Shown: positions 5,590 to 25,826 of the stretch, in pieces
Layout: the number at the start of each line of letters is the position of its first letter
Numbering within the stretch: the stretch's first letter is position 1
Translations under genes and position numbers: made by a program
Assembly (NCBI GenBank): GCA_963816275.1
Contig: CAWFJU010000028.1
Span: forward strand, 383-64,382
Length of the DNA: 64,000 nt
Source of the DNA: an uncultured Actinomycetes bacterium
Lineage (GTDB): Bacteria; Actinomycetota; UBA4738; HRBIN12
Reading direction: 5' to 3'
The notes under the pieces: generated by a model
The model's input: the letters and a program-made list of their open reading frames with translations, nothing else
Told to the model about the DNA's origin: nothing
Database searches by the model: none

Positions 5590-5595
5590 GAGTAT

Positions 5596-6709
5596 CTACG
5601 TGGAGGTCGTGACCTGAGGCTCCCGGCGCAGATGAATCGCAGGATCGTCGAGCCCCTCGGGCGCCTGGTCCGGCCCGGCCGCAGGGCGGAATCCGGGGAG
5701 TCGAAGGACGAACGTGGTGCCGTGGCCGAGCCAGGCTCCGCACCGACACCGTCCCCCCATGGGATTCGACGATCGCCTTGACCATGGCCAACCCGAGCCC
5801 GGTACCCCCTGCACGGTGCTCACGGGCACGCGGCGTGCGGGCGAAGCGATCGAACACGTGGGGGAGCTGCTCGGGCGCGATCCCGACGCCGGTATCCGAT
5901 ACCTCGATGACCAATGCTTCGTCTCGTGCGGAAGCGGCGACCCGAACGTCGTCCCCCGTCTCGGTGAATCGCAGGGCATTCTCGATCAGTGAATCCATCG
6001 CGAGCTCGAGACGCTCGAGGTCTGCCGAGACCCAGCCGTGCACATCGACGTCGAGCGCCCAGTTGCGTGATGCGGTGACGCTCCAGCGACGGACGGTCCT
6101 CGAGAGGAACGGTTCGACCCGGAACTCGCCGCGGCGCAGGAAGTCGGTGTGCTCCGCGGCGGCGAGGATCAGGAGCCGCTCCGACGCGCGCGTGAGCCGA
6201 CTGAGCTCATCGAGGACGACCTCGGCATCCGCCACGATCTGATCGGACGGCGCCGCCTCGAGGATCAGCTCGGTGTGGCCCCGAGCCACCGTGATCGGGG
6301 TCTTCAGCTCGTGCGATGCGTCCCTCGCGAACTCGGCCTGCCGCTCACGCAGCCGCTGCTCGCTCTCGATCGCCCGCCGGGCCCGCTCCGTGTGCCAGAC
6401 CATGGCCAGGAACATCGCGCCCATCAGCGGGATCTCGGTCATCTCGTCCAACCCCGGTCCACCCGCCGAGGCGGCCGCGTGATAGAGCGACCATCCCGTC
6501 ACGAGCATCACGACGGCGAGCACGAGGATGGTCGATCGGAGGCGCCAGAGTCTGATCCCGTACACGATCGTCAGGCTCACCCAGACGAAGTGGAACGGGA
6601 TCGTCTCCCATCCCGTGATGTCGAGCAGCACGGTGAGGTTCGCGAGGGCGAAGATCGCCCACGCGACCTCGACCCACCGCCTACGCAGCACCGACGCGAT
6701 AGCCGACAT
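5596..6709 (-). CDS. Membrane sensor histidine kinase; frameshift at ~5735
   Basis: N-terminal TM helices, H-box DASHELKTP, N-box ENALRF, G1 DTGVG and G2 GTGLGL. The C-terminus GHGTTFVLRLP is in the 5596..5979 frame. Confidence 0.9.
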
Positions 6710-7353
6710 GGCGCACCGTCTCGATCACGTCGTCCCCAAGCTTCGGACGGAGCCGTCCGATCGTGACGTCCACGACGTTGCTACCGAGGTCGAAGTCCAC
6801 GCCCCATACGTCCGAGAGCAGATTCCTGGCGGGACGCGGGCAATCCCTGCTTGCCCATCAGGTACTGGAGGAGCACGAACTCCCGTTCAGAGAGGCTCAC
6901 GGGACCGCGCCCGGAGTCGGCCACCCGCGTGACGGGGTCGAGGACGATCTTGCCCGCCTGGAGGAACCGCTCGCCCGATGGCGGGCGTCTGAGCCGGGCC
7001 TTCACGCGCGCCACGAGCTCGGAGAGCGCGAACGGCTTCGACAGGTAGTCAGACGCACCGATCTCGAGGCAGCGGACCTTCGATTCGACGTCCCCGAGCG
7101 CGGAGAGGACGAGCACCGCTTGCGACGGATTCCGCTCGATCAACCGCTCGAGGACCTCGAACCCGTCGATCCCGGGCAGCAGAAGGTCGAGGACCACGAG
7201 GTCGTACCTGACCGTGGCAGTCAGCGCGAGCGCCGTGCCGCCGTCGCTCGCACGGTCAACGTCATAGCCCTCCGAACGGAGGGCGCGCGACACGAAGTTC
7301 GCGATCCGCTCCTCGTCCTCAACGACCAGCACCGACGTCATAGTGCCAGCCAT
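6681..7353 (-). CDS. OmpR-family response regulator; frameshift at ~6830
   Basis: VLVVEDE, LDLLLPGIDG and KPF receiver motifs. The winged-helix tail LSDVWGVDFDLGSNVVDVTIGRLR...ETVRHVGY is in the next frame and ends at TAG 6681. Confidence 0.9.
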
Positions 7354-7596
7354 CGTAGGGAGACCTACCTAGCTTGACCAGGGGACATGGGTCGGTAGAT
7401 GCGCTCGGCCGCCCAGCCATCAGACCTAGGGCTTCCGACCGTTCCCGAGTCACCCGCCCGTGCCTAGAGTTGCTCGGTACGTACCGCAGCATCGTTACCA
7501 CGATGGCGGTACACCGTCGTCTCTGGAGGAAACCATGGCGAGCATCGAAACCCGGCGGGAACCACCGTCTCGATCTGCTTCGAGAACACGGACGAC

Positions 7597-7938
7597 GTGA
7601 TCCGGGCACTGGCACGATTCAACGACCCGACCGCGGCACGGTCGACCTCGTTGATGGTGGTCCCGCGCCATCAACGGCGCGGCGCGGGCGACGCGTACGG
7701 ATTCGCGTCGTTGTCGTGGATCGAGGAGCATGCCGAGCTCGTCAGGCGGCTACGTGGACTCGAGCCGCGGGAACGGGAGATGCTCCTGCTCTGCTACACG
7801 GAAGATCGGAGCGTCGCAGAGGTCGCCGAGCACCTCGGCATCTCTCGCGTCCATGGCTACCGCCTCCGACGCCGAGCTCTGGAGCGCATGACGATCGTGG
7901 AGGGTCGGCTCGAGGCGGTCTCCACGGCTGCCGGTTAG
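7597..7938 (+). CDS. Small sigma-70 region-4-like HTH protein, 113 aa
   Basis: LEPREREMLLLCYTEDRSVAEVAEHLGISRVHGYRLRRRALERM matches the region-4 HTH pattern. No region 2 is visible. Confidence 0.7.
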   Translation: MIRALARFNDPTAARSTSLMVVPRHQRRGAGDAYGFASLSWIEEHAELVRRLRGLEPREREMLLLCYTEDRSVAEVAEHLGISRVHGYRLRRRALERMTIVEGRLEAVSTAAG

Positions 7939-8243
7939 TCCAGATCCCGGGCGAGCGCCGCCAGCGCTTCCACCGAGAGGAGCCGCGGCATCCCGCGGAC
8001 GGGCGGCCCGCCGACCTGTGCCTCGAAGCACGATCCCTGACACCGAACGAGGAACGTCGACCCTTCCGTCGCTTCGCGCGCGAACGATCCCAAGGCCTCC
8101 ACGACGTCGGTGCCGAGCAACGTGGCCAGGGTGATCGCCCACCGCCCCAACTCGTACATCACGTCATCGTCCAAGGGGGGCGCGACGGGTCGTTCCGACG
8201 CGGCGGCGCCTGACGGGTCGTCAGGTCGATCCCGGAACGGCAT
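7935..8243 (-). CDS. Hypothetical protein, 102 aa, last gene of the copper-oxidase operon
   Basis: Its ATG overlaps the S8 gene stop (TGATG at 8241-8245). No recognisable motif. Confidence 0.45.
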   Translation of the reverse strand: MPFRDRPDDPSGAAASERPVAPPLDDDVMYELGRWAITLATLLGTDVVEALGSFAREATEGSTFLVRCQGSCFEAQVGGPPVRGMPRLLSVEALAALARDLD

Positions 8244-10365
8244 CAGGGGCGCTCGATCGCGTCGAGGCCCAGGCCGGCCAGCCCGACCGCGGTCCCGTCA
8301 AGGGCCAACGGAGTGGAGAAGGTGCAGGCGGAGGTGGCGCCGAGCGAGGTGGGGTGGCATACGACGGCGTCGTCGCCCGTCCCCGTCGCTCCCGTCACCT
8401 TGACGTCGCCTACGGTCGACAGGACGATCGAGCCGTCGGCATCGATCGTGGCGGCGTCGGTATCTTCCGAGTTCCACGTCGCGAGACCCACGTCAGAGGC
8501 GTCCAGGTACATCGCGAGCGTGCCTGAGGTGCTGCGTCCGAGCGACGTGGCAGCGAGGGCGATGAGGTCTTCGTCCTGGATCGCCGTGAGAGACGACGTC
8601 GACCCCTTGCCCGACAGCGACAGCACGACCCGTCCATCGGGCAGGACGTCGACGGCGTCGACGTCCTCGCCGTCCGCCGTGAGACCCACATCGGATCCAT
8701 CGAGGTACATCGAGAATGTCCCCGCCGTGACGTCGCCCGTCGACGCCGCGTCGAACCGGACGAGATCCGAGTCATCGACCGTCAAGCGACGCCGGGAACG
8801 GATCCCGCCGCCCCCAGCGAGATCACGAAGGAGTCAGCGTCGAGACGCGCGAACGCGTCCACCTCGCCCGTCACGCCGACATCGGACCCGTCGAACACCA
8901 TCGAGTAGCGGCTCCCGTCGAACGCCACGACGTCCTCATCCCGCACCGTGACGGAGCCGAGATCGTGCGAGCCCGCCGCCGAGATCGACAACTCGAAGGA
9001 GGCGGGTGGATGCGTCCCGAGCCATGCCTCGGCGGCCGCGACGTCGAGCCGTCCATAGCCGTACACGTCGTCGGGGCCCGCGGGGCCGAGGTCGGCGGCC
9101 CCGCCCGTCAGCGCGGCGATCGTCCGGTCCACGGTGAGCGAGGGATGAGCCGACACGAGGAGCGCTGCCGCGCCTGCCACATGCGGCGCGGCGATCGACG
9201 TGCCCGTGATCGTCTGGAAGAGACCGAACCGGTCTGCCGTGCTGATGCCCGACCCCCGGCGCGACGAGCTCGGGGTACACGCCCGTCGAGCCGCCGCAGG
9301 TCGTGGGACCACGGCCGCTACCGCTCCACACGGCGTCGCTCGCGTTCACCGCTCCCACCGCGAACGCCTCCGGGTAGTTCGCGGGGCTCACGCTGCTGCC
9401 GGTGCCCGGCCCGAAGTTGCCGGCCGCCACGACCGGGAGGATGTTCGCGGCACGGAGCGCCTGCAGGTCCGGCTCCAGGGAGAGGTCGCATCCCGGCGCG
9501 GTGCCGAGCGACCAGGAGAGGTTCACGATGTCGGGAGCGTCCGCGGTGGACGGGATCGCCGTCGGGGTCGAGCGCCCACTGGAACGCCTGATGGATCGCG
9601 GTGAGGGAGCTGGAACCCGCGTCGTTCCAGATACGCGCCGCGATCCAGTCGAGCCCCGGGTGCCATGCCGATGGCCGTGCCGCCCGAGTCGCCACCCACC
9701 ATGACCCCCACGGTTCCCGTCCCGTGACCGGTCAGGTCGATCGGCGACGTGGTGTGCTGCCCGTACGGATCGAACCAGCTCCCGGGCGTCCCGCGGAACG
9801 AGCCGGCCAGGTCCGGGTGGGAGGCGTCGACCCCGCTATCCAAGCTCGCGACGACGACACCGGACCCGTCGATCCCCTGGTTCCATAGGGTCGGAGCCTC
9901 GGCGGTGGCGATATTGACCTCAGCGGTGGTCGCGGCGGGAACCACGGAGACCGCATCCGGCCGGACCGCTGCGACGTCGGGGCGGCGTGCGAACGATCTG
10001 ATCACGCCGGGCGTCGCGCGCACCGACACCGCGTTGGCGATCCAAAGGGGGGTCGCGCGTCCGGAGAGCCCGGCGCGCCCAGCGGCCGCCAGCGTCGCCA
10101 TCAGGTCGGTCCGCGCCGCGCGCGACGATCGGCGGAGGCTCGGCACCACCGTCGCCGGACTTGCGGCCCGCGTCGCGGGGTCTCGGAGCGTGATGATCAC
10201 ACGGAGGCGCTCCCCGGGCGGCGCCGTCGACAAGGCTGCCCGCAACTCCCCCGAGAGCGGGGCGCGCATCGCCTGCGACCCGCCCGGGGTCGCGCCGGCG
10301 GGGAGGGACGTGCCGAGCGTGGTCAGCAGGACGAGGACCGAGGCGATCCTCAGCGCCCTCCTCAC
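8243..10365 (-). CDS. Secreted S8 (subtilisin-family) serine peptidase with C-terminal acidic repeat domain; several frameshifts
   Basis: Signal peptide, prodomain, triad LDSGVD / GHGTGTVG / GTSIAAPHVAG and oxyanion VAAGN, spread over ORFs 9523..10365, 9318..9695, 8936..9526, 8782..9312 and 8243..8785. Confidence 0.85.
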
Positions 10366-10377
10366 CTCACCCTCCCT

Positions 10378-10956
10378 CTAGATCTGCGCCGTGATGCCGT
10401 CGATCCGCACGTCGTCGATCACGACGGAGACCGTCGTGCCGCCTTGGATCGCGCCTCCGGGGTTGGGGAAGAGGAGGTTCACGCTCTCACCGGCCTTCAA
10501 GCCCACGTGATGCGCCATCCCGCCCGCGACGTGGATCACGGTGTTCGATCCGTCGGGCACGAGGACCGGCATGGCCGCATCTCCATGGGTGTGGCCGGTC
10601 TTCGGCTGCAGGTGGACGCCGAAGAGCTGCGCCGCCTTGGCCGGGTCGATCACGGTCATCCTTAGGTCCAGGAGACCTCCGGATGCCACAACGCCGAGCA
10701 TCGTCAGTCGCATCCCGTACTCGGCCTCGAACGCCTGCGGTGTCATGGCGGTCGAGTTGGCGATCTCGGCCGGAGGGGCCGACGTCGACCGGATGTCGAA
10801 TGCGAGCGCGCCCACGAAGAGCGCGATCACGGCCAGCCCGGCGACGACCGCCGTCCGAGAGGGTCGTCGACGATCCGGACGGAGCGGTTCCAGGTCGACG
10901 GGCGAGCCGAGGTCTTCCGAGGTACCCCGGCTCGCCCGTGTCGTGATCTGGCTCAC
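10378..10956 (-). CDS. Membrane-anchored hypothetical protein with His/Met patches, 192 aa
   Basis: Single TM helix (TAVVAGLAVIALFVGALAF), motifs GHTHGD and GGMAHHVG. GTGA overlap with the upstream gene. Confidence 0.7.
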   Translation of the reverse strand: MSQITTRASRGTSEDLGSPVDLEPLRPDRRRPSRTAVVAGLAVIALFVGALAFDIRSTSAPPAEIANSTAMTPQAFEAEYGMRLTMLGVVASGGLLDLRMTVIDPAKAAQLFGVHLQPKTGHTHGDAAMPVLVPDGSNTVIHVAGGMAHHVGLKAGESVNLLFPNPGGAIQGGTTVSVVIDDVRIDGITAQI

Positions 10957-13900
10957 GGTGTGATCACCGTCCTCCGCATCGACGTGAAGGTGTCGAGGAA
11001 GAGGCGGCCCGTGGCGTTCTGAGTACCGGTATTACCGGTCAGTGCCGCCGCGCCGAACCGGATCGACTCGATCGAGTAGCCACCCGTCTGGGCGCTGTTC
11101 CAGGTGGTCAGGGCTCCTCCTGTGAGGTTGCTCGTGAATGCGGCGCCGTTGACCGAGATCTGCAGCTTCGGCGTGCCGCCCGAGTTGGACGAGAGCCAGC
11201 TGATCTCGATCCGGTTCGCAGCGCTCGGGGTCAGCGCGAACGTGCCGGAGGTCAGAGTGCCGCCGTTCGTCCGCGCCAGCACCATCCGCACCTGGTACGT
11301 GCCCGCGCTGGGTCGGAGGAGCTCGACCCGGAACGCCTGGGTCCCCGAGCCGTTGTTGTTCACCCCCGTGTACCCGGCGAGCAGGGTGATCTGGCGAGTG
11401 TTCGCGAAGGTCACCCCGTTCGGGTTCAGGTAGAACCTGGCGTGGTACGCGGCGTCCTGCCTCGGCGAGTTGTCGGTCAGGTAGCTCGACTGGAAGGAGC
11501 CCGAGGTGTTGCATGAGCTGGACGTGTTGCAGAGCGCCACCTGAAGACCCTGTGTGGAGCCGGTCCCCATCGACGCTGCGGCGACGACGCTCATCCGAGA
11601 GGCACCCGTCGTGGTTCCGAGCCACGCGGAAGTGGTGCCTGACTCGAACCCGTTCGAGAAGATCGTGTTCGGGTAGACGACGCTCACCGGGACCGTCGTC
11701 TTGACGGTGCTCCAGTTGCCGGCTCCATCTCGCGTGCGAACCGAGATCGTGTGGTTCCCCGGGGCCCAGCCCAGCGCGACGTAGTCGATCGTGGCCGTGA
11801 ACGTTTCGGCGGCGTCCCCGAGGGGAGCCGTCGCGGTGCTCATCGGCGTCCCGTGACCGACGCCCGGATCGGTTCCCTCGAACCACTCCGCTCCATACAG
11901 GCCTGAGCTGAAGGCCGGGTCGGTCGCGTTGGCCGTGACCGTGAAGGTCGTGCCTTCGCTCGCTCCTGAGTTCGTTGGGCTCGGGGCGGCCGTCGGTGTC
12001 GACACCGACGGTGCCGCCTTGTCCACGACGAGCGTCACGGTGTTGAAGGTGGTGCTCCAGTTCCCGGCGGCATCGCGGGCATGGATCTTCACCGTGTGGA
12101 GGCCGTCGGTGAGCTGCGTGATCGTCGACAGCGGGATGTCCGCGTACCCCATCTCCGTCGGCGAGTCGAACGCGCCGTCGGAGGGAAGGAACTTGATCCC
12201 GTTGCCGTCCACCGGTGACGCCACGTCGATGAACGCCTCGGCGGCCTTCACGTTGGAGACGTTGCCCGGATCGGCGAAGTTCTGGATCAGCCGGATCGTC
12301 AGGGTGGCCGAGTCCACACCGATCTTGCCGTTGGTCATGGTGGACGGGCAGGGTCGTCCACGTCGTCGACGTCGGAGCGGTCTTGTCGACGACGAGCTGG
12401 ATCGAGCCAGCTCCGACGTTGCCCAAGGCGTCGCTCACCTCGATCTCCACCAGGTACGGACCTTCGGGCGCTCGGGATCGCCGCCGTCGGGATCGAGGCG
12501 CTGAACGCCGAGACCGGGTTCGTCGTGGTGGCGAGGGTCAGGTTGGACCACGCTCCGCCGTTCACGCGGAACCGCGCCTGGGGCGAGTTGGAGATATTGC
12601 TGCCGCCCTTGTTCGTGTCGTTCGCGGTGCCCGACAGGGCGACCGCGGCCGATCCGTTGGTGGGGTTGGAGGTGAGGGTCACGGAATTGATCGCCGGACC
12701 GTCATGGTCGACGGTGAAGCTGTCCGAGTTGAACGCACCCCAGTTGGTGCCGTCGGTCGCCCGGATGATCACCTGATGCGAACCGGTCAGGAGCGCCGGC
12801 GTGATCGGGATGCCCGACCACGTGAGCCCGCCCGGCCCGGCGGCCACGGTCGTCGCCGGGATCGCCGTGCTGCCCGTCGAATCCAGGTAGAGCTCCGCGC
12901 CCGTCGGCAGTCCCGACGCGGTGGCGGTGACGTTCACCGTCGACCCGCTCACCATGGAGGGAGCGATCACGATGCTCGTGACCTTCGGGCCGGTGGCCGG
13001 TGGTGTCGAGGTCGGCGAGACCTCGATGAAGGTCATCATGCCGCCGAAGTCGTAGATCCGGCCGTTGCCGGTGGTCGTGGTACCCGCGTTCGCGTTGTGC
13101 AGCAGGCGGGTCTGGTCGAAGAGCGGGAACCGCATGGTCGAGGGACCCGTGAGGGCAGCGGCAGGGATCGCGATGATCCCGTCGGCCGTCTCGCCGGGGG
13201 CGATCGAACGTGCGACCTCGGTCTCGTGCGCGGTGAGGACCCCTCCGTCGGACGAGACGAACCGCTGCTGGAGTCCGAGCGTGCCCATCGAGTGCGGGAG
13301 CAACCCGCCGTTCACGTACCGCAGGAGCAGGTTCGTGCCGGCGGCCGCCACGATCGGAGCCGTGGTCGGGATAGGCCTGGCCGTTGATCGTGAAGTACCG
13401 TGGCGAGTAGTTGCGGAGGTCGAAGTTCCAGGGTGCCGAGCTCGCGTTCAGCGCCGGATCGATCTCGCCGAGCACGACCACGGCTTCATCGGTGAAGTCG
13501 GTGTTCGTGTTGAGCCCCTGGTCGCTCTGAGCCGTCGTCGCCACCCAGTCGGCGGGACGCACGATCAGGACGCCGACCATGCCGAGCGCCACTTGGTACT
13601 GGGTCCCTGGAAGCAGGCCGGCCTCGTAAAGGTAGGTACCGGGCTTCAGCGGCATGAAGGTGTACGACTTCGTGCCGTTCGGTGCCACGACCCGTGAGGT
13701 CAGGGACCATGCCCTGCGCCTGGATATCGAGCGCGGTGTCCCGGGTCAGGCCGTTGTGGAGCTGGATCGTGCAGCTCGTGCCGACCTTGGCGACGACGAC
13801 GGTGTCCGGGATCGACACAGCACCTCCGGTTGAGGCTGCGTAGCCCCAGACGTTCACCGTCGTGGTCGGTGCGATCGTCTTCGTGCCGGCCTTGGCGTAG

Positions 13901-14037
13901 AGGTCGACCGGACCGGCGGCGCAGTCCAGGCCGCCGACGAGCGCGGCGTGCGCGGCCGGCGGGGCAAGGGTCAGCAGGGTCGCCAGCATCGCCAGCGCGA
14001 GCGCCAGGCTGATGCGGAGACGGGCGGACGGCTTCAT
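10953..14037 (-). CDS. Two-domain cupredoxin (MCO-like) protein 'C' lacking Cu ligands, plus ~4 Ig-like repeats and a C-terminal beta-sandwich; about 4 frameshifts
   Basis: Signal ending AHA; VWGY, PGTYLYEAG...GMVGVLIVRP and YFTINGQAYPD cupredoxin hallmarks; repeats ending HxxxxxxxDxAGNWS; final domain starts IFSNGFESG. Alternative starts at 14055 and 14070. Confidence 0.75.
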
Positions 14038-14066
14038 CGTGTCTCTCCGATCCATCGCGTTCCCTC

Positions 14067-15367
14067 TCATGGACACACCGGCTGGAAGTTGGCGTCGACC
14101 GGGTCGACGCGGGTGTAGGTGATGGGACCGGTCATGACGACCGCGCCCGGTGAGGTGATCTGGTGCAGCGAGTGGTTGTGGGCGAGGATGTAGTACTCGC
14201 CGCATTCGTTCTGCGAGGAGAAGCCCGGAGGCAGGGTGCCCTGCACGCCCAGGTACGGGGTGCCGCCGTAGAACGGACCGACCTCGAGGTTCGGCGAGGT
14301 TCGGCACGATCACGTCGACCGGGTTCTGCGGGCTGTACTGGTTGTCGTCCTGCCAGGTGAAGAGCGCGTCCCACGTCTGGCCGGGTCCCACGGGCACCGA
14401 GAACTTGTCGAAGGGCGGCGCGTGACCAGGTTCCCGTCCCTCCCGACCACGAGGGCGTTGTTCCCGTGCGGGTGGAAGGGGTAGTCCTCCGTGCCGACGC
14501 TGATGAATCGGTCGAGCGACGGGAGCGGATTGTGCGTGGCGTCGTAGGGCAGGATCTCCGACATCGACCCGTAGGGCTGGTTCGGGAGCCACGAGGCCCC
14601 GTTATCGGCGATCGAGTCGGGGAACCCGCGGCCGTTGATCATCCAGTAGCGCGGGTGGTAGTTGTTCATGTTGAACGCCTTGCCCGGCCTCGGCGCGGGC
14701 GTGCAGCGTCGGGTCGATCTCCGAGAGCAGGATCAGGAACTCGGCACCCGGGTTGAATTGGGTCGAGCCGTCGTTGTAGGCGAAGCTCGCGCCCATCGAG
14801 GGCCGCACGACGAGGGCCCCGAACAACCCCATCTGCACCTGCTTCGCGGGATCGGTGCCGCTCTGGTACAGGAAGGTGCCGGGGTGGTCGGCGGTGAATT
14901 GGTAGGTCACCGACCCGCCCACGGCGGCCGTCTGCGCGAACGACGACAGCGAGCCGCCCGCGCCACCGAACTCGGGCTGCGACGGAGCGCCGTCGGCCGA
15001 TGACGTTCGCCTGGCCCGGGAAGACCAGCGAGGTCGCCTCGGGCAGGTTGTTGTTCCTGAGGACGATCGTGACGACGTCACCCTGGTTCACGCAGAGCAC
15101 CGGGCTGGGGTGCTGGAAGGGCTGACCGCTGAGCGCGTAGCCCCACATGAAGGACGTGGCGCCGTCGGGAAGGTTGATGTAGCCCGTCTTCGTCACGAGC
15201 GTGAACGTGGGGTTGTGCTCCCTCGGACGTAGCAGACCATCCCCACGTTGTGAGAGCTGCCGACGGCCGCGCCGGCGGGATCGATCGCCCGACGTCGCGA
15301 CCATCACGGCCAGCGAGGTGAGCAGCACCAGCGCGGCGATCGTCGAGCGCTTGATCGTTCGGGTCAT
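14067..15367 (-). CDS. Two-domain cupredoxin (MCO-like) protein 'B' with His pairs only in domain 2; about 5-6 frameshifts
   Basis: Hydrophobic signal; MWGY, PGTFLYQSG...QMGLFGALVVRP and WMINGRGFPD; FHPHG at 14466-14474 and AHNH at 14172-14180. Ends ...QPVCP-TGA at 14067. Confidence 0.8.
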
Positions 15368-15393
15368 CGGGATGCCTCTCTCGGTCGCGGCGC

Positions 15394-16733
15394 TCACGGG
15401 TTCACCGTGCTTCCGTAGTCGTTGGGGAACCGCTGCGTTGGCAGGATGAAGCTGGGTGGGTACACCCACACCTCGGTGGCCTGTCCGCCGAACCCGCCCG
15501 GCGCAAGGTTGTTCGAGCGCGTGTACGCGCGGTTGTAGAGGACGTAGCGGTCCGGCCCGGGCTGGTTGCCCGAGTGGGGCGGCGCCGTGAAGATCGCCTC
15601 GGTGCTCTCGCCGGCGCCGAGCATCAGCGTGTCGGTGTCGTACGGCGCGGTCAGGAGCGTCGCGTCCTTGCCGACGACCTGCATCGGGATGCCCGTGAGG
15701 GTCATCGCCGACTGCTTGTAGCCGAGGTTCGCGAGCCGGAGCGCCACCCTCTCGCCGGCGTTGCAGGTGATCAGCGACGAGAGCGGCTGGTACTGGAGCT
15801 CGGGACGGCCGGGAGGGGCGAGCAGGTCGCCGTCGGTGTCCTGGCCCACGGCGGTGTTGTGCCCGAAGTGGACGAACCGCCAGCTATTGAATGCGGTCGC
15901 GGTCGGATCGAGCGGCGCGTGAGGGGCGATCGTGTCCGGGTAGACCCGGCCGTTCAGCATCGAGAAGTCGGCGCGGTAATCGGTCCACTCTGGTAGCTGG
16001 ATGTGCGCGTCGGCCCAGTGGGCCTCGGCCCAGACCTCGGACAGGATCATCCCGTACTCGCGGTTGAACTGGGTCGTTCCCCCGTCGTTGTCGTAGATGA
16101 AGTTGTCGCCCTGCGCCGGCTTGATGAACACCAGCCCGGTCATGCCCATCTGGACGTGCTCGGTGTCCTCGACGTGGCAGTGGAACATGTACGTTCCGGC
16201 GTCGTTCGGCTTGTAGACGTAGGTGAACTCGCTGTTGGCGGGGACCGCAACCGAGCCCGACGGCTCGCCGTCGAAGAACGGGATCACGTCGCGGAACCCG
16301 TGGAAGTGCACGGTGTGGGCGTCGAAGAGGTCGGGGCGCTGCGCGAGCCCGAGGTTCGTGAGCTTCACGCGGAACTCCTGGCCCTTCTTCAGCCAGAACA
16401 TCGGCGCGGAGTGCTGCGCCTTGTTCTTCTGGTTCGCGATCTGCGCCGCCGAAAGGCCCGTGATGTTGTGGAACCCGAACATGTAGGTCGTGAACGGCGA
16501 TCCGGGTGCGTAGCTGTCCGGGTGGAACGGCGGGATCGCCGGCGTCTCCGGCAGCCAGATCCAGCCGTCGGTGCCCCCGAAGTGGATGTCGGCGGGGCGT
16601 ACCCGGTGCGGCGGTCGCTGTCGACCGGCATCAGGACGTTCTTGGCGCCGATCGTCACGAGGCCGGCGCCGGCTGCCGCCACGCCGCCCCACTTGATGAA
16701 GTCACGGCGGCTCAGCTTGCTCGTACCTGCCAT
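15394..16733 (-). CDS. Tat-exported two-domain multicopper oxidase protein 'A' with T1 site in domain 1; one frameshift at ~16600
   Basis: Tat motif SRRDFIK; HTVHFHG at 16300-16317; HCHVEDTEHVQMGM at 16141-16182; SD GGAGGA upstream. Confidence 0.88.
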
Positions 16734-16783
16734 GGGGGCTTCCTCCGTCCCGTTGCGGTGTCGTTGGTCGCGAGAAGGAGCCA

Positions 16784-19700
16784 TCAGAGGGTCCCTCCCC
16801 TGAAGGTGTCCGCGGTGGATCCGATGGTGCCGAACCGGATACCGATCCGGCCGGTTCCCGATGGTCCAGGTGTTGGCGCCCGTGGTCGGGAGCTGGACGC
16901 TCCCGAGCGAACGTGGTCGTCGCGCCGTTGATCGAGTAGACGGCGACCATGCCGTCCGAGTACGCGGCCGCGAACAGGACCTCGTTGTCGCTGAGGTTCT
17001 CGTCGAGGTCGGCGTACTGGGTGAAGGCGCCGCCCGCGTTCGTCGTCGTCTCGACGTAGATGCCGTCGGTCCCTTGCGTGTCGAACCGGACCCGGATGTA
17101 GTTCGTCGGGTTCGCCGTCGTCCCGCCGTTCGCCTTGAGGATCAGGACGATTCGTCGCGGTTGCCGCTCGTGTTGGACGTCAGCTGGATCGACGCGGCCT
17201 GGTTCGGTCCGAAGACGGCGAGTTCCAGATCGCCGAACGCCGCCGTCGTTCAACTGGTTCGCGACGACCTGGTTGCCGTTGACGCGAAGGTCGATCGCGG
17301 CGCCGGTGTTGGCCTGGCTCCAGCTGGCGCCCAGGCTGTTCGCGTTGGCGCGGTTGAAGTTGTCGAGCAGCGCGAGCGTCGGAGGCAGCACCAGATCGCT
17401 GTCCGGCGCACTGGTGTTGTTCGCCGGGCTGGGATCCGTCGATGCCGGCAGGCACGCCGATCGTCGCGCAGTTCGTGATCGTCCCGAACCGGGCCGTCAC
17501 GGTGAAGGTCCTCGTGAAGGTGGCCGTCCCGCCCGGGGGCAGGCTGGCCGTGCCGGTGAGGTTCCCAGATCCGCCTGCCATGCAGCCGCCGGCCGGAGCC
17601 GAGCAGGCCCACGTGCCGCCGGTGAGACCGGCCGGAACGGTGTCGGTCACGGGAGCGCTCGTCACGGAGCTCGGTCCGGCATTGGACGCGACGATCGTGT
17701 ACGTGACGGTATCGCCGGTGACCACCGAGGTCACACCGTCGGTCTTCGTGATGCTCAGGTTGGCCTGGCCGAGGATCGGGTCGGTGTCGGTGGCGCTGTT
17801 GTTGCCGCGGGTTCGGGTCGGTGACGCCGCCGGGAGCCGCGATCGTCGCGGTGTTGGCGAGCGACCCTGACGCCGTACCCGACAGCGTGGCGTTGAGCAC
17901 GAAGGTCGCGCTCCCGCCCGACAGCAGGTTGACCGTGGCGTTGATGTTGCCCGAGCCCGTCGCCGGGCAGGTCGAGCCCGCCGACGCCGTGCAGGTCCAG
18001 GACGCACCGGTCAGCGCCGCCGGCACCACGTCCGTCACCGTGGCGCCGATCGCGGCGCCCGGTCCGGCGTTGGTCGCGACGATCGTGTAGCTGATCGCGG
18101 CACCCGCGACCGCGTTGGCCGCCCCGTCGGTCTTCGTGATCGACAGGTTGGCCGGGCAGCCGGTGCTCACGATCTCGTCCGCGCCCTCGTCGAAGCCGAC
18201 CGCCGCGTTGCAGGTCGGTGCCGACGGGCGGACCTGGCCGTCGATGTCGGTCGTCGGGGCGCTCACGCCGGACTTCGACGCCGCCCCGGCGTTGATCGCC
18301 GTGGATCCGGCCGCCAGGTGGAAGTCACCGAGCAGCGACGGCGGCAGGTCGAGACCCACGATGTGCGCGCCGACGAACGCCGGGTTCTGACGCCAGGCGT
18401 TCAGGTTCACCGACACGACGTATGGGTCGGCGAAGCCGGGGTCGACCCCGACCTGGTTCGTCGCGCTCGGGTTCGTCCCGGTCGTCACCTGCAGCATCGT
18501 GTTCGTCGGCGACAGGAGGAAGGTCGGGTCCTCTCCACCCATGTCCCAGTAGTTGATGGGGGACGGGTCACCGGCGAGGCCGATCCCGGTCACCATGCCG
18601 GCCGCGAAGTCGTTCGACGCCAGCTCGGTTGTGCCAGAACACGTTGTTGAACAGCAGCGGGTTGCTGAACAGCGGCGAACCGCCGGGCAGGGTGTTCTGC
18701 AGCGCCGTGCTGTTCCGGCTCGTGGACAGCCCTGCCGCAGCGGCCGAGCCGTTGCTGGTCGACGCGGTCGCGGTCGTGACGTTCTCCGCGACCGTGTTGT
18801 TGAAGATGCGGACGTTGGGCGCGTCGTTGAGCGAGATGCCGCCGCCTTCATGCGCCGACACGTTGTCGACGATCATGTTGTTGAAGACGTTCATCTGGCC
18901 GGTTCCTGCGTTCAGGAACCTGATGCCGCCGCCGTCGTCGCCTCCGAGGTTGCCCAGGATGACGTTGCCGTCGATCGTCACAGGCCCGGAACCGGGCGAC
19001 AGTGCACCGGCGGTTCGCGGGCAGCTGCCCGGCGATCATCACGCCGCCGGCCTCGTCGAAGGCCTGGTTGTAGTAGATGCGGTTGTCGTGGATGCGGCCG
19101 CGTCGGGCTCAGGCCGTAGGCCGAGATCCCGCCGCCGTACTCGGTCGAGTAGTTGCCGCAGATGTCGTTGTTCGCGATCTCGTAGTCGTCCGCGCCCGCG
19201 AACAGCGCGATGCGCGCCGCCGAGGTTCGTGCCGGCGTTCGCGACGATCCGGTTGTGCGCGATGCGCAGGTCGTCGTTGTGGTTGTCGGGGTCGGGCGTG
19301 ATGTGCGGCGTGCCGACGCGGATCGTGCCGTACGCGCCGCCGTTGTGCTCGACGATGTTGTTCGTGACCTGCAGGCTCTGGATGTAGGAGTTGGCGAAGA
19401 TCGCGCCGCCCTGGGTGAGAGCGACCTCTCCGCCGATCTCGCCGAGCTCGCCCGGCAGGCCCTGCTGGTCACCACCGCGGATGTCGAACCCGTCGACGCC
19501 GGCCGGGTAGCCGGAGCCGTACGCGTTGTGTCGACATCGCGAGGAAGTAGAGGACCTGGCCGGTGGAGATGTCGGGGTTGCCAACCCAGCTGGGCGTTCC
19601 GTCCCCATCCAGGAACGTCGAGATCTTGTCCGCCCAGTCGGTTGTGAGCTGGCTGTCACCGGCGAAGGCCGCGCCATCCAGGATCGAGCCACGGACCGAC

Positions 19701-22700
19701 CCGTCGGGGCTGCCCGGACCGACGCCCTGGAGCTTCAGGGGCTCACGTGATGATCAGGTTCTCGTAGTACGCCCCGCGCGGGTTCAGCCGCGGGTTGGCC
19801 GTGGCGGGACCGGGGTAGATCACGATCAGGTCGTCCTGCGCGCTCGCCGCCGCCGCGTCGATCGCGTCCTGGATCGCGTGCGGCGGGGTCGCCTCGTCGA
19901 ACTGCGTGGCGAAGAACGACCGCGGGCCGGGAGTGACCTCGGGCGAGGTTCCCACCTCGTACACGAGCGGCGTGTAGCCGGTGACGTTCCCGCCCCCGAA
20001 GTTGTCGACGCGAAGCTCGGTGCCAGTGGTCGTGCCAGCACCAGCGACCCGGATCCCGAGCCTGCCGCCACCCGTGGCGAGGGCGATCGGCCACGGAGTC
20101 ACGGTTGCGGTCACGTTGACGCTGCCGACGACCTGCGTCTCGTTCTTGTAGACGATCACCGTGCCGTCCTCGAGCGCACGGGCGCCGAGTCGGTCGGTCG
20201 CGGCGAACGTCACGCCGGTGAAGGTGGCCTGGTTGACGATGGTGTTCGTGTTCTGGGCCTTCGTGGAGACCACCACGCGACTGTTCGTGGCGTTGTACGC
20301 GACCTTGATCCAGCCCGAGTTCGAGCTTGATGGGTTCGGGTTACCGCCGCCCGAGAGCTTGAGGTACAGGCCTGCTTCAGTCGCCGCGGTCGCCACTTGG
20401 ACGAACGTGAACGCGGCCTCCTGGTTCGGCCCGTACGTCGGGCCGCCGTTCGTCGAGCCGGTCCACCGCGCGTTCGCGGTCCCTCGGCCCCGAAGGTAGC
20501 CGCCCGTAACGACGAAGGAGTTGGCCCCGCCGTTGTTGTTGTCCAGGGTCCAGTTGTTCCCGTTGGCGAACGTCGAGAGCACGCCCGTCGTGGGGAACGC
20601 GCTGTAACCCAGCACGTGGAACGTCAGACCGTTGATCGTGCGGGCGCCGCTCGCCGTGACGACCGTGAGCTGCTTCGGGCCGCTCGGCGTGCCGGCCGGC
20701 ACGGTGACCTGCAGGTGCGACGCACCCCAGACGGTGGGCATAGCTGTCCCGTCGAGGAGCACCTGACCGGGCGTCGAGCCGAAGCCGAGGCCATCGATCG
20801 TGAAGGTCTGGTTCCCGAGCCGTGTGTCCACGTACGGCTTCGACACACGGTAGAGCTCCGGGGTCGTGGGGGCACCCGCCGGGTCGTTCACCGGGCAGGT
20901 CACCGCACGCTGGGTCTGGGTCCCGGGGATATTGAGCCACACGCCCACCTGCGTCGGGGCGTTGTCGGCCGGGATCATCCCGCCGGGGGTCGCCTCGAAC
21001 TGCGCGGCGATCGGGCGGAACTGCGGGTTGAAGTTCGGGTTCAAGGCACCGGGCACGCCGGGGTCGTTCCCGACGAAGCGGTAGACGTTCTGGCAGACGC
21101 CGGACGGCGTCGGGCAGTTGATGCGGTTCGTCGAAGGCAGCAGCACATCGACGAAGCCGTTGTAGTCCGTCTCGACCGTGGTGATCAGACGGTTCGTGTA
21201 GTCATAGATGCCGACCGGGGCGAAGGCGACGCCGGCCTTCTCGCCGTACATCGTGGACTTCAGGTCGGCCGAGAAGTTCAGGTCATCGATCATGTACTCC
21301 CACAGGCGCGCCGGAAGCGGCACGTCGGTGAACACGTTGAACGTCGGCACGATCGAGCGGCCGTTGTTGAGTGGGACGAGCTTCACGTCGCAGAGCGGCT
21401 TGGCCATGCCTCTCGTATGGAGAGCCGCCGATGTCGACGAACGTCGCGTTCTCGGTGGGGGTCGACGCGGGCACGGAGATGTCCGGACCCCCCAGGCCCG
21501 AGGGGTCGGTCAGGGTCGTCGCCGGGTAGTCGTCGTTGCCGTCCGCCACGTCGACCTGATGGAGCGCCCCGGCGCACGCCGGCGGCACGGCCTGCGGGAT
21601 CAGGGCGTCGCCGTTCCCGATGTTGATGTCCTCTTCCCGCGTGAACTGGTAGAGCGGGTGGCCGGCTTCGTCCTCCTGCGGCACGACGCGGACGAGGTAG
21701 TCACCGGCGGTCAGCGACGTGAACTCCCCTCCCTCGCACAGGGGGTTGGCGGGGTCGTCGGCGACCACGGTTCCGTCGAAGCAGCCGTCGCCGAAGCCGT
21801 AGTTGCCGTCGACGCTCGCGCCGAAGTTGTCGCCGAACTGGACGCCGTACATGTAGCTGTCGATGCATCGGGCGGTCTGGTCCTGGTACCCGGTCTCGGG
21901 TGAGCTCGGGTCGTACGGAAGCGCTGCCTGGTCGATCCCGAACTCGAGCGGGTTGCCTTCGGCGTCCCTCGCGACGCATCCGGACGGGCTGCTCCCAGGT
22001 CTCGGTCACGTAGGTGTTCAGGAGCGGCCCGAACTCGTACCCGCCCGTGGCGGGGTCGAGCGCGTAGGTGCCGTCGGCGTCGCACGGAACGCTCCCGTCG
22101 GCGGGGCAGTCCACGGGCGCGTACAGCTCGACGGTCTGACCGGACACGCCAGGCTGCCAGTCCTCGACGGCGGCGTACCGCGGGTCGAGCTCGTTACGGG
22201 TCGTGTCGTAGCTGACCGTGCCCACGATCCCGCCGTTCCGCGGGTCGAGGCCGCCGGTCGCACCGGTGGCGTCGTAGGCGTGGACGCCCCAATCGACCGT
22301 GCCGGACTGCCCGATCACCGACAGTGTGTTCAGGTCGACGCCTGGGTCGAGGATCGTCGTGGGGTCGGGCTGGTTGTCGGCCTGGTAGGTGACGCCCGTC
22401 GTGAAGTAGGAGTCGCTGTACGCCTCCAACACGACCCAGGTCGTGAAGGGGTACCCGGACTCGAACTCGTAGAAGCCGTTCTGGTCGGTCGTGGCGGTGT
22501 TCGTGCCGCGGTCGGCCAGGGTGTTGTTGCGCGAGCGCAGGGTCAGCGTGAAGTTCGGGACGCCGAGCTCGCCCGGATCACGGACGCCGTTCCGGTTCGT
22601 GTCGCTGAAGACGTAGCCGCTGTAATAGGTCCACCAGCCGCTCAGCGCCATCACGCCGAGGTCGACGGTCTCGCCCGTGAAGGGGGCCGCGCCCTCGCCG

Positions 22701-24089
22701 ACGGTGACGTTCTTCACCATGAGGATGTAGTCCTGGGGCTCGTCCCACCAGGTGATCGTGTAGTTGCCCGGGGCCAGGTTGGGGACCTCGGAAGCGGCCG
22801 CTCGCGTCGCCGCGCCCGATCCACGCCACGTTGTCGTTCAGCTCCATGCTGTCGATCACGATCCACGGCCGGTCGATCGGTCCGGCGAGCTTGCCGCCCT
22901 GGTGCACGCCGATCCCGCCCATGGCGTCGTCGTACTGGGGCGTGTAGTACTGCACCGCGTCGACCACGCCCTTGATCTCGCCGGTACCACCGGGGAGGGC
23001 AGGAGCGCGCCAGCACTTCGTCGTGAACTGACCGCAGGTGCCGGCGGCCGTGCTGAATCCGCCGCGGGCAGACCGGTGCCGGTCATCGTCGCCGTCGGCT
23101 CGGGCACGAACCCGAAGATCGCGATCGGCACGGGCTCGGCGCCGACCGCGAACTCGGTGTCGAGGCCGGTGTCGCCCTCCATCGGCCACACGTCCCAGTC
23201 GTGGTTGCCCTCGAGCGTGGTCGTCTGGATCCACTTCTGACCGTCGGGCGCGATCACCGACAGGGTGTAGCGGTCGGTCCCGAGGTTCGGGATCGTGAGG
23301 ATGCCGTTCGCGTCGCTGTAGCAGCCGTTGCCGACCTGGGCGACGACGGGTCCGCCGTCGACCCACTCGATATCCGTTCGGACCGCTCGGGTCGGCCGCA
23401 CGTAGGTGGTGCAGAGGGGGTTGCCGAAGACGTCGGTGGAGACCTGGCCGAGCACGTCGGCGATCAGGCCCTTGAAGTCGGACAGGACGGGCTCGGTGTC
23501 GTCGAACGCGCCGTTCGTCAGCGTGTCCGCGAAGACCTGCGCCGCGGACCGTCGCCGTCGGAAGCGGCGTCGGCTGCAGCGGGACCTCGACCGGCGTGGA
23601 CTCCTGGAGCGGGATCGAGAAGTGGGCGCCGTCGAGCTTGTAGCCGTCGGCGAGGACGGAGATGAGGTATCGGCCGTTCGGGAGGTCGAGGCCCTGGAGG
23701 TCGTTCAGGTCGGCGTCGGTCCCGATCGCCCAGTTCCCGTCCACGTCCTGCGCGACCGGGCTCGAGCTCGGGATGCCGGCGGTCGACAACCAGTTGCAGG
23801 AATCGGGGTAGCCGGGATCGAGCGCGGAGCAGCCGGAGCCGGGCTCGGCGTTCCGCTGCTCGGTCGTCGCCGTGTTGTCGACGTTGATGATCCAGCGATA
23901 GGACGTGACGGCGTCCCCCTTCGTCACGGGAGCCGAGCCCGATCCGTCCGGGGCCCACGGCTCGGTCCGCGCGCTGACCACGTCGATCGTCAACGTGTTG
24001 GTCGCGGCCTGGGCGGCCTGCATCGGGAGCTGGGTCATCAAGCCCGTCACCATCGTGAGGGCCACGACAACGTGAAGCGTCCTCCGCAT
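16784..24089 (-). CDS. Giant (~2400 aa) secreted multidomain protein: SdrD-B/Cna-like, IPT/TIG, parallel beta-helix, 2x DUF11-like, 2x lectin-like beta-sandwich; many frameshifts
   Basis: SD GGAGGAGAGG, signal MRRTLHVV...AAQA; VFSDTNRNGVRDPGE (SdrD-B-like); FTIDGLGFGSTPG (IPT); Asn-ladder repeats GGGI..NNxIxxN; NLSITKTDG...YTIVAxNAGP twice. Ends ...DTFRGGTL-TGA at 16784. It could be more than one gene if a break is real. Confidence 0.72.
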
Positions 24090-24150
24090 CTGAATTCCTC
24101 TCCTCCGGCGCCTTAGCGCTCGGTTCCTGTCGGGGATGTCCTGATCTGCC

Positions 24151-24302
24151 TCGCTCACCCGCTCACGAGCGGGTGGGCGACGCTGGCGAGGCGGTCGTGG
24201 AGTCGGGCCTCGACCGCCTCGCCAGGTCGTTGCGTCGGTCCCGGGTTGGGCGAACCGGCGGGACCCTGAAACGGAGAAACGGCCCCCGGGAGGGACCGTT
24301 TC
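24151..24302 (-). promoter_or_regulatory. Four consecutive hairpins in the putative 5' leader of the copper-oxidase operon
   Basis: Inverted repeats at 24151-24180, 24183-24225 (perfect 15 bp), 24237-24265 and 24276-24302 (11 bp, followed by a pyrimidine-rich tail on the minus strand). Confidence 0.55.
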
Positions 24303-24398
24303 CGCAGCCGCACTATCGACCGGGTCAGGACGGTGTTCGGGCGACCGTAGCCGTTATCCACCGGACGTGTAACACGAGTCAATACGGCCGGCCCAACA

Positions 24399-24444
24399 TG
24401 ACAAAGGTGTCACCGGCGCAGCGCACGACATGACAGATCTGTCA
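24399..24444. promoter_or_regulatory. Tandem palindromic operator-like sites TGACA-N4-TGTCA
   Basis: TGACAaaggTGTCA at 24399-24412 and TGACAgatcTGTCA at 24431-24444, both preceded by ACA, 32 bp apart. They lie just upstream of a minus-strand TTGACT (24382-24377). Confidence 0.6.
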
Positions 24445-24959
24445 TCGAAACGGCCTGCGAAACATGTCCGAGACCGCGGTTCACCCCCGCGATCGACTCG
24501 GATGTGAACGATCGATCCGCCCCCTGGGATCGCGAACATGCGGACACGTCCTCGCCCAGCTCCGCCATCGCATCTCGCATCGGCGTCAGCGTCGGTCGGT
24601 GCGCCCTTCATCTCCGCGACGGCGTTCCTCGGACGGTATCGCTTTGCGTGCAAGTGTTCGCGACAGCACCCGCCCAGAGCTGGGCGTTACCTCGGCGTAG
24701 AGGTCGAGATCCGACCGCTTCGTAACGGTCAACAACTCTTCGGCCGATAGCGCCTTGCGCGCAGGTGGTTGCGACACTCGCCGGCAAGGAGATGACTCGA
24801 GAGGCGGGCACGTCCTGCGACAGCGTTTCGATCTTTCACGGGGGGACCCTCCGGCAGGTCGGTCCGCATGATCCCGACCGGTAGTCCACCGCGCATGAGG
24901 TCGCGACCCGTGCTCTTTGCCGGTGGACGGGGATGCCTCGTCGGAGTTGAGTACCCGAG

Positions 24960-25712
24960 GTGAGTAGCGAACCGCACGCCGCAGAGCGTGACTCGGAGCA
25001 GAGCCGCCGCGGACTGGCGGTCGTCGTGGGGTTACTGAGCGCGGGGGCCGGTCTCGCCGTCGCGTGGGCGTTCCCGAGGACGGCAGCGATCGGATGCCGC
25101 ATCGGCCATTGTCTCGTCGAGGCGAGACGCCACGTCCCGTGGAAGATCGCCATCGTGTTTGCGGGTTCGGTCGTCGGTCTCGTGTTGTCACGCCTGGCTC
25201 TCCGGGCCGATGTGACCCGCACGACCGTTCGGATCGCGGCCACATCCGGCGTCGTCGCGTGCGCTGCCGCGGTTCTCGTTGCCGTCAGGCTCCGCGGAGG
25301 ATGGGCACCGGTCGACGCCGGGTCCATGACGAGCGATACCTGGATGGCGTTCCGGGTCACCTTGGCCGCTGCGGGCTACACGGTCGCTATCGCGACGGCG
25401 CTCTCCCTCAGGCACGCGTCAGGCGCGCGGGCACGAGCGCGCGCGATGGGCCTGGCCGTGTTCGCCATCGGCATCCTGGTGGCGGTCTTCGTGCCATCGC
25501 ATCTCGTGTGCCCGGTCGACCGGTTCTGGGTCCCGAACGACGAGGCGGGTCGATGCGTCGACATGTCGCGTGGCGCCCTGACCCCCATGCCGCCGGAACC
25601 AGCCAGCGATCGTCAACGTCCTGAGCGATCGATGATCGTGGTGGCCAGCCTGGCGGCCGGCGGCGTGGTTCTCTTCGCAGGTTCTCCGAGATCCACGCGA
25701 CGACCGAGGTAG
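24960..25712 (+). CDS. Hypothetical membrane protein, 250 aa
   Basis: About 6 hydrophobic segments and a Cys pair in a C-terminal loop; GAGG near the start. Confidence 0.5.
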   Translation: MSSEPHAAERDSEQSRRGLAVVVGLLSAGAGLAVAWAFPRTAAIGCRIGHCLVEARRHVPWKIAIVFAGSVVGLVLSRLALRADVTRTTVRIAATSGVVACAAAVLVAVRLRGGWAPVDAGSMTSDTWMAFRVTLAAAGYTVAIATALSLRHASGARARARAMGLAVFAIGILVAVFVPSHLVCPVDRFWVPNDEAGRCVDMSRGALTPMPPEPASDRQRPERSMIVVASLAAGGVVLFAGSPRSTRRPR

Positions 25713-25748
25713 GAGCGGCGTTACGCAACCGGTGCCGACGTTCGCCGT

Positions 25749-25826
<78 letters not shown>

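Follow-up and report, generated by a model that had tools for sequence, protein, structure and literature searches.

What do three successive cupredoxin genes encode when none of them carries a complete set of copper ligands? The question is raised by an operon in the 64-kb window, by which we mean the whole stretch of 64,000 nucleotides analyzed here (contig CAWFJU010000028.1 of an uncultured Actinomycetes bacterium; G+C content ~70%) and to which all coordinates refer. The operon lies wholly on the minus strand, running from 24089 to 7935, and comprises genes for a giant secreted protein, the cupredoxin-domain subunits A, B, and C, a small membrane-anchored protein, and an S8 subtilase, followed by a 102-aa open reading frame (ORF). 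Taken as a whole, it is probably best explained as encoding an exported, obligately heteromeric two-domain multicopper oxidase together with its partners. A preliminary description had depicted seven intact genes for an extracellular copper-oxidase apparatus. Its gene order, strand, and spacing (gaps of ~50 nt or less, or overlapping genes) were borne out, as was the export of copper-oxidase proteins: each of the six proteins, from the giant protein to the S8 protease, has a readable signal peptide or membrane anchor. The intact genes were not, as at least 23 frame changes leave none of the five large genes as a continuous ORF, and neither were the three separate oxidases that the description implied nor a loose scaffold.

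Copper ligands of A, B, and C and a predicted A-B interface

We compared the window with related loci, searching one genome per species. A relative of A was encoded in 216 of 254 pattern matches, and the best 80 loci were fetched and used. Among solved structures, those closest to A and B in sequence are the type-C two-domain oxidases of Nitrosomonas europaea (3g5w) and of a metagenomic source (mgLAC, 2zwn), and the alignments span both domains. A (15394..16733, with its ATG at 16733 and its stop at 15394) is a two-domain multicopper oxidase that matches Pfam Cu-oxidase_3 and Cu-oxidase_2 in domain 1 and Cu-oxidase in domain 2. It is 93% identical to a database relative (P0001), with which it shares its N-terminus and the kind of its twin-arginine signal. 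B (~14067..15367) is a two-domain cupredoxin paralogue with a general secretory (Sec)-type signal. C (~10953..14070), also with a Sec-type signal, begins with two cupredoxin domains, followed by immunoglobulin-like (Ig-like) domains and a C-terminal jelly-roll-like domain; models of CueO and NirK can be aligned with residues 42-306 of its N-terminal part. The three proteins are related to one another, with 24% identity between A and B (E = 2e-15), 33% between B and C (E = 2e-34), and 22% between A and C (E = 4e-9). In the window itself, multicopper-oxidase Pfam domains fall on three successive fragment groups downstream of the giant gene, and Ig-like domains come after them.

All of the copper motifs of A lie in domain 1. 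The HxxHxH and HCH motifs, the distal histidine, and the methionine are invariant in 67 of 67 orthologues, and domain 2 is devoid of HxH. The type 1 (T1) copper ligands, in A1 numbering, are H97, C143, H150, and M153/M155 (without exception in sets of 39 and 67 sequences), and the trinuclear-cluster histidines are H100, H102, H142, and H144, which constitute the domain-1 set only. In B, it is domain 2 that holds the invariant motifs (HxH, as HPHG, and HNH; 67 of 67 orthologues), with no such motif in domain 1, and the trinuclear-cluster histidines H264, H266, H367, and H369 constitute the domain-2 set only. Among 39 C N-termini, no histidine or cysteine is invariant, leaving C with no conserved copper ligands, and T1 ligands are lacking in both B and C. 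The fragments in the window carry the same motifs as the orthologues; those of B (14602-15087, 14310-14732, and 14067-14309) show YPFHPHG and AHNH. None of the three proteins supplies all eight trinuclear-cluster histidines, as each chain of a type-C two-domain oxidase does.

Known two-domain oxidases build the trinuclear cluster where domain 1 of one chain meets domain 2 of its neighbor. Given this inter-chain arrangement, the domain-1 ligands of A and the domain-2 ligands of B predict an active site formed by A (domain 1) and B (domain 2). Judged from their sequences, A and B seem to hold complementary halves of one catalytic site, and the three cupredoxin proteins seem to make up one enzyme.

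We then modeled the complex of the mature A and B proteins of Nocardioides taihuensis (locus L078), using this pair only, with alignments, in three runs and with three controls. The interaction had an ipSAE score of 0.87 (0.87, 0.86, and 0.88 in the individual runs), and the best control scored 0.00. Of 80 solved complexes, 58 attain the pass mark, as do 2 of 110 mismatched pairs. At least 97% of the contacts were common to the runs, and the predicted local distance difference test (pLDDT) score of the partners was 92 or higher. The predicted interface includes residues 100 and 102 of A and residues 264, 266, and 368-372 of B, which are the ligand histidines.

The N-termini of the subunits differ in their export signals. 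An RRx-hydrophobic motif occurs at 65 of 67 N-termini of A; by a loose pattern, it occurs at 24 of 67 in B (1 by the strict pattern) and at 8 of 54 in C. A would thus be exported in folded form by the twin-arginine translocation (Tat) pathway, bearing the T1 copper and four of the eight trinuclear-cluster histidines, and B, exported by Sec, would give the other four. With A leaving by Tat and B by Sec, the trinuclear cluster would be completed only after export, forming solely at the A-B interface outside the cytoplasm. C, a presumably copper-less paralogue with Ig-like extensions, most likely takes the third position of the pseudo-threefold ring that two-domain oxidases form. To close such a ring, one more two-domain unit must sit between domain 1 of B and domain 2 of A, and the obvious candidate is C. 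The ring would have a single active center, as in the six-domain oxidase ceruloplasmin. More tentatively, we picture an A-B-C heterotrimer with one T1 site and one split trinuclear cluster, intermediate between the homotrimeric and six-domain enzymes, as the catalytic head of a hitherto unrecognized extracellular machine. The conserved beta-helix protein of ~1,700 residues would be the part that handles the substrate, and the machine would occur in at least four phyla, with head and giant core fused in the PVC group (Planctomycetes, Verrucomicrobia, and Chlamydiae).

The type-C two-domain oxidases are alike in having two cupredoxin domains per chain, the T1 site in domain 1, an HCH-x5-H loop, and a trinuclear cluster between domain 1 and domain 2 of the next chain, the last being a prediction for the proteins described here. 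However, the known enzymes are homotrimers with a full ligand set on every chain, giving three centers, whereas in the operon the ligands are divided over two paralogues and the third has none. With ligands split over A and B and absent from C, there would be at most one center per A-B(-C) unit. The chains are also longer (~400 aa compared with ~300 aa in type-C oxidases), and C carries ~700 extra residues. Ceruloplasmin and MnxG of the Bacillus Mnx complex both form a six-cupredoxin ring whose only trinuclear cluster is placed where the last domain meets the first, as would be the case in an A-B-C ring. In contrast to the three chains here, both are single polypeptides, and the kinship is limited to the cupredoxin fold and weak sequence matches to ceruloplasmin. 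Mnx also resembles the operon in combining an oxidase with accessory subunits, although MnxE and MnxF have no counterpart in the cluster.

If the ligand split has the meaning that it appears to have, this would be a multicopper oxidase unable to work as a single gene product, and a testable example of how multi-domain copper oxidases evolve by duplication and loss of sites. It would also pose a question of biogenesis, with one half exported folded, the other unfolded, and an O2-reducing cluster finished outside the cell. Candidate substrates are a metal ion, a phenolic polymer, or the components of a matrix to be cross-linked, and the enzyme could bear on the oxidation of metals and organic matter in soils.

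The giant protein, its fused forms, and the accessory proteins

The giant gene (16784..24089) starts with an ATG at 24089 and a signal peptide, and its stop is placed near 16784. Fragments of it match Pfam SdrD_B, TIG, Beta_helix, and DUF11. Intact orthologues are ~1,960-2,330 aa long (1963 aa in Methylobacter tundripaludum SV96, locus L071, and 2329 aa from stop to stop in locus L015), and that of N. taihuensis lies at 3130-9831 of its locus. They are built of SdrD-B/CarboxypepD_reg-like domains, IPT/TIG domains, and a right-handed beta-helix, with DUF11 in the lineage of the window. Across 20 sequences from three phyla, a conserved core of ~1,700 aa has a mean column identity of 60% and hundreds of invariant residues, including long invariant motifs in the beta-helix part. 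So high a degree of sequence conservation is more in keeping with a working enzyme or a machine for precise binding than with a loose scaffold.

Fused forms tie the giant protein to the oxidase. Longer relatives of A number 71 proteins at E ≤ 1e-20. In 9 of the 12 examined (P0123, P0127, P0137, P0141, P0143, P0156, P0173, P0186, and P0191), a single chain joins a giant-core homologue to an A-type domain behind it, with identities of 28-46% in the giant core and 32-41% in the A-type domain. Six of the nine, P0186 and P0191 not among them, were scanned for motifs, and their A-type domains have only HxxHxH and HCH; P0173 has one extra HQH. Such gene fusions are evidence of joint action of the giant protein and the oxidase. 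The oxidase had previously been proposed to dock on a large scaffold. The fused chains bear out a functional tie, but ~1,700 residues as conserved as the oxidase itself do not suit a loose scaffold. In our model, the giant secreted protein of ~2,200 aa would be a physical partner of the oxidase, and its ~1,700-aa core, including the beta-helix, would probably bind or present the substrate.

A second type of fusion was observed among proteins of ~790-810 aa (P0124, P0131, P0133, P0135, P0147, P0150, and others). In these, an A-type domain with only HxxHxH and HCH is joined to an N-terminal PAP2-superfamily region that matches PF01569 or PF22778. The named sources include Planctomycetes and Kiritimatiellia bins. 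The PAP2-superfamily region would be another partner for a half-site oxidase.

The small anchored protein (10378..10956) has one N-terminal membrane helix and a beta-sandwich of ~110 aa. It had been called His-rich. The membrane anchor stands, but the label His-rich is weak, and no histidine or methionine is invariant among 41 sequences. Its best Foldseek match is an archaeal pilin (E = 7.8e-4), which probably mirrors the shape of a helix plus a sandwich. A comparison with the PCuAC domain (6p17) gave a Z score of 5.7, tied with many unrelated beta-sandwiches.

The product of the S8 subtilase gene (8243..10365) has, besides a signal peptide and a propeptide, a repeat module at its C-terminus. 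Its fragments match both ends of the Peptidase_S8 model, and DSG, HGT, and GTS motifs are recognizable by eye. The N. taihuensis orthologue is a subtilase over its full length (PF00082, E = 2.9e-45). In that species, the giant protein, C, and the S8 protease each end in a module of ~230 aa after a poly-proline linker, and the copies are 50-60% identical. The shared module was found in 64 of 80 loci. It is modeled in orthologues as a small four-bladed propeller (pLDDT 96.6), for which the VIA tool matches hemopexin-like domains with Z scores of 8-9.2, barely above the tool noise of 7-8. The best fold matches of the N. taihuensis S8 module are matrix metalloproteinase 12 (MMP-12; Z = 9.2, root-mean-square deviation 4.1, 157 residues aligned) and plant PA2 albumin (Z = 9.1), and Foldseek returned six-bladed Kelch propellers with template modeling (TM) scores of 0.3-0.4. 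The sequence of a proline-rich hinge and then a predicted four-bladed propeller is shared with the hemopexin-like domains of matrix metalloproteinases. The identity to these domains is only 8-10%, however, and unlike them the module also ends the giant protein and C. As modeled, it is plausibly a common docking or anchoring module. The anchored beta-sandwich protein and the subtilase may serve in assembly, copper supply, or processing.

Several observations weigh against the picture of one heteromeric oxidase with dedicated partners. The T1 and trinuclear-cluster ligands of A and B are presumed from general motif rules for multicopper oxidases. Solved homotrimeric two-domain oxidases exist, so the high score of the A-B model may reflect model memory, that is, likeness rather than binding. 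Neighboring genes merged in gene calling could account for some of the fused proteins; one protein near this family, P0121, is suspect. For the giant protein, a profile search of the PDB gave only SdrD (3.4e-9) and an IPT/TIG protein, and the protein Atlas placed it only in generic beta-helix clusters (0.91-0.94). All fold matches of the small protein are weak and tied (VIA Z ≤ 6.5), as for a generic predicted beta-sandwich, and in the window the propeller module is present on the S8 protease only.

Conservation, copper neighborhood, and alternative functions

The preliminary description had named a gene-neighborhood comparison across phyla as a check, and the predicted conservation held. Fragments of the window matched the giant protein in 69-74, A in 80, B in 77-80, C in 74-75, the small protein in 62, and the S8 protease in 60-62 of the 80 loci (19 for the C-terminal S8 fragment), and many of the misses are loci ended by contig edges. 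The six-gene set is collinear and on the same strand in 60-80 of 80 loci. Among the 67 loci in the tree, 43 are from Actinomycetota, 21 from Chloroflexota, and one each from Pseudomonadota, Myxococcota, and a genome with no phylum label. The six intact genes encode proteins of 2,233, 470, 435, 995, 187, and 798 aa in N. taihuensis and of 1,963, 492, 447, 959, 200, and 883 aa in M. tundripaludum SV96. In the latter, the set is flanked by housekeeping genes, which indicates that the six genes are the minimal unit. Carriers among culturable soil and water bacteria include these two species as well as Xylanimonas, Cellulomonas, Cryobacterium, Humibacillus, and Intrasporangium. A library clustered at 50% identity contains 455 representatives of the B-type family at E ≤ 1e-30, 2,359 at 1e-10, and 4,383 at 0.001.

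Some Chloroflexota genomes carry two whole copies of the cluster (L019 and L066, on two contigs of one bin). A Caldilineaceae genome has tandem copies (L028 and L032, on contig JAWKOU010000001.1), the ranges of which are ~19 kb apart.

The cluster matched no characterized system in Pfam, NCBIfam, or the literature searched. None of the six proteins has a curated family in Pfam or NCBIfam, where only weak domain-level matches were obtained, and searches of the full-text literature, to which subscription journals and supplementary files did not belong, turned up no account of the operon or of a split two-domain oxidase. A "heterotrimer" in PMC11761707 was considered as a precedent and rejected; it is a single gene product partly without a domain. 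Three-domain enzymes of the laccase, CueO, CotA, and CopA types were likewise rejected, since the NCBIfam models for CueO, CopA, laccase, and ascorbate oxidase yield 15-41 bits against cut-offs of 445-615 and each chain has two domains.

Genes related to copper handling adjoin the cluster in many genomes. In 44 of 80 loci, including that of N. taihuensis, the small gene and the S8 gene are separated by a gene for a CopC-CopD fusion, which is absent from the other 36. It is not found between these genes in the window, and the genome to which the window belongs gives only a weak match on another contig. Downstream of the operon lies a two-component system (5741..7368, minus strand), composed of an OmpR-type response regulator (~7341-6693) and a histidine kinase (~6676-5741). 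It is homologous to a pair upstream of the cluster in N. taihuensis, and its response regulator has matches in 23 of 80 loci. The best NCBIfam model for the regulator is the heavy-metal (CztR/SilR/CopR) subfamily, to which the regulator beside the N. taihuensis cluster is likewise closest; the scores are 142-166 bits, below the cut-off of 279.

Two other accounts of the function must be weighed against these data. The cupredoxin proteins could be three independent oxidases or blue-copper proteins, each acting alone and merely sharing an operon, as the preliminary description had implied. Each does have cupredoxin-type Pfam matches and a signal peptide of its own. Nevertheless, we consider this account very improbable, because the full ligand set is found on no chain: A is without the domain-2 histidines, B without the T1 ligands and the domain-1 histidines, and C without any. 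A trinuclear cluster could not form in a homotrimer of A or of B, and the three genes occur together in 74-80 of 80 loci. Alternatively, the operon could serve copper homeostasis or resistance in the manner of cop systems, with a surface cuprous oxidase under a copper-sensing two-component system and with CopCD and the small protein handling copper. The CopC-CopD fusion within the cluster and the affinity of the adjoining regulator to the heavy-metal subfamily favor this account, and the combination of an oxidase, CopC/CopD, and a metal-type two-component system nearby resembles the layout of copABCD-copRS. Yet the regulator falls short of the subfamily cut-off, CopCD is missing from the cluster of the window and from more than a third of the loci, and the consensus sequences of A and B contain no methionine-rich copper-binding stretch. 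Whereas CopA is a single chain of three domains, and cop operons (CopA, CopB, CopC, CopD, and CopRS) include neither a giant protein nor a subtilase, the operon here has a conserved giant partner of ~1,700 residues and a subtilase that copper resistance would leave unexplained. A role in copper resistance is therefore unlikely in our view, and we continue to favor a heteromeric oxidase with dedicated partners.

Frame breaks in this copy and flanking sequences

Although the minus strand from 24089 to 7935 maintains a G+C content at third codon positions (GC3) of 0.8-0.9, its reading phase switches every few hundred bases, its longest ORF is 554 aa, and no large gene is continuous. Even so, the fragments from stop to stop can be read as parts of a small number of large proteins. 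We tracked the frames by tblastn with intact orthologues and then with a frame track built from all intact orthologues of the 80 loci. The giant gene has 13 frame changes (perhaps 2 more near its 3' end), A has 1, B has 2, C has at least 3, and the S8 gene has 4; the gene for the small anchored protein is the only unbroken one of the set. The frameshift in A comes just after the signal peptide, placing the signal out of frame with the body (16617-15394). The response regulator of the adjoining two-component system also carries one frameshift. In 19 of 23 cases, the change is +1, as expected from one extra base.

We compared the window with short-read contigs from four soil-metagenome runs of one study, which contain 17-27% of the sampled words. 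Among the indels listed in this comparison, 12 of 12 are single letters of the window that are absent from the contigs, and 10 lie within the operon. Those at 13367, 14683, 19014, 19104, 19213, and 22788 coincide with frame changes. When the ten listed letters in the cluster are removed in silico, ORFs merge; a fragment of C that had 370 aa lengthens to 469 aa, and one of the giant protein grows from 155 to 387 aa. The breaks can be explained without any in-frame stop, and the fragments are as similar to their orthologues as is the nearly intact A. The genome has a size of 2.83 Mb in 29 contigs and a completeness of 64%, a value that fits broken marker genes.

Most likely, the frame breaks are consensus errors of the assembly and not gene decay. 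The bias of the frame changes toward one sign, the listed indels being single extra letters throughout, the dispensability of stops, and the retention of GC3 and identity all point in this direction. Four findings run counter to it. The short-read contigs are mostly 95-99% identical to the window and may derive from related strains whose genes are intact; another 22 indels lie outside the 12 listed; the listed sites are not homopolymers; and the errors are concentrated at ~6.7-24 kb, a distribution that a uniform error process does not predict, while intact ORFs as long as 1,187 aa occur in the remainder of the window. A crude genome-wide count gave 13 frame switches per 16 kb in the operon region, compared with a median of 6 and a maximum of 16. 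Together with the completeness of 64%, these counts hint at patchy frame errors across the assembly. Coverage by long ORFs, used as a measure of assembly quality, did not discriminate.

Counts equal to or above that of the cluster (12-16 per 16 kb) were observed at 16-40 kb of contig C19 of the same assembly (G000), at 24-48 kb of C7, and at 280-304 kb of C8. The same range was seen at 212-232 and 256-276 kb of C5 and in C20 and C29. In a delta-proteobacterial bin (L001), the cluster is likewise divided into many short ORFs, the longest piece of the giant gene being 671 aa, which suggests the same sort of frame errors in another metagenome bin of long contigs.

The alternative to assembly errors is real pseudogenization of an operon that the strain acquired, possibly as an island beside a tRNA gene, and that now decays by frameshifts. 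The confinement of most frame changes to the cluster and the two-component system, with intact ORFs elsewhere, would be as expected, and the 1-5% divergence of the short-read contigs could mean that they represent other strains. There are also signs of acquisition. A tRNA-Arg(ACG) gene (25749..25826, minus strand) lies beside the cluster, 1.7 kb upstream of the operon; an orthologue of A was found in none of 18 sampled genomes of the same genus (best match E = 1.1e-10, 30% identity); and the A protein of the window branches outside the main actinobacterial clade in a FastTree phylogeny, the branch supports of which are local values only. These three observations suggest that the region 5700-25750 is a laterally acquired island, although no att-like (attachment-site-like) repeat of 13 bp or more was found in the tRNA-Arg region. 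Natural decay, however, should produce a mixture of insertions and deletions of varied size, along with stops, and the one-sign pattern of the changes and the uniform listed indels count against it, as do the preserved GC3, the identity of the fragments to orthologues, the low completeness of a genome in 29 contigs, and the other patches with as many frame switches in the crude scan. Pseudogenization is thus improbable, and consensus error remains the preferred explanation. As a practical lesson, an operon read from raw sequence can conceal dozens of frame errors.

The 102-aa ORF (7935..8243, minus strand), which overlaps the stop codon of the S8 gene, had been counted as the seventh member of the operon. 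It matches no Pfam family, is absent from all 80 related loci, and is probably not part of the system. A scan for promoters and terminators over 7300-25800 returned no promoter-like site. It gave four terminator-like sites, each of them on the plus strand, where shuffled sequence has a mean of 5.5. A search of the whole window with Rfam models found two tRNAs only.

Three further observations concern the flanking sequences. Between the 102-aa ORF and the response regulator (7342-7934), there is no convincing frame, and short-read contigs indicate one-base indels at 7576 and 7583. Upstream of the operon, the plus strand has a 253-aa multi-helix ORF with no Pfam match (24951-25712). Downstream of the two-component system, 1380-5595 encodes a double ABC ATPase and a 939-aa FtsX-type permease, both of which are intact, unlike the genes of the cluster.

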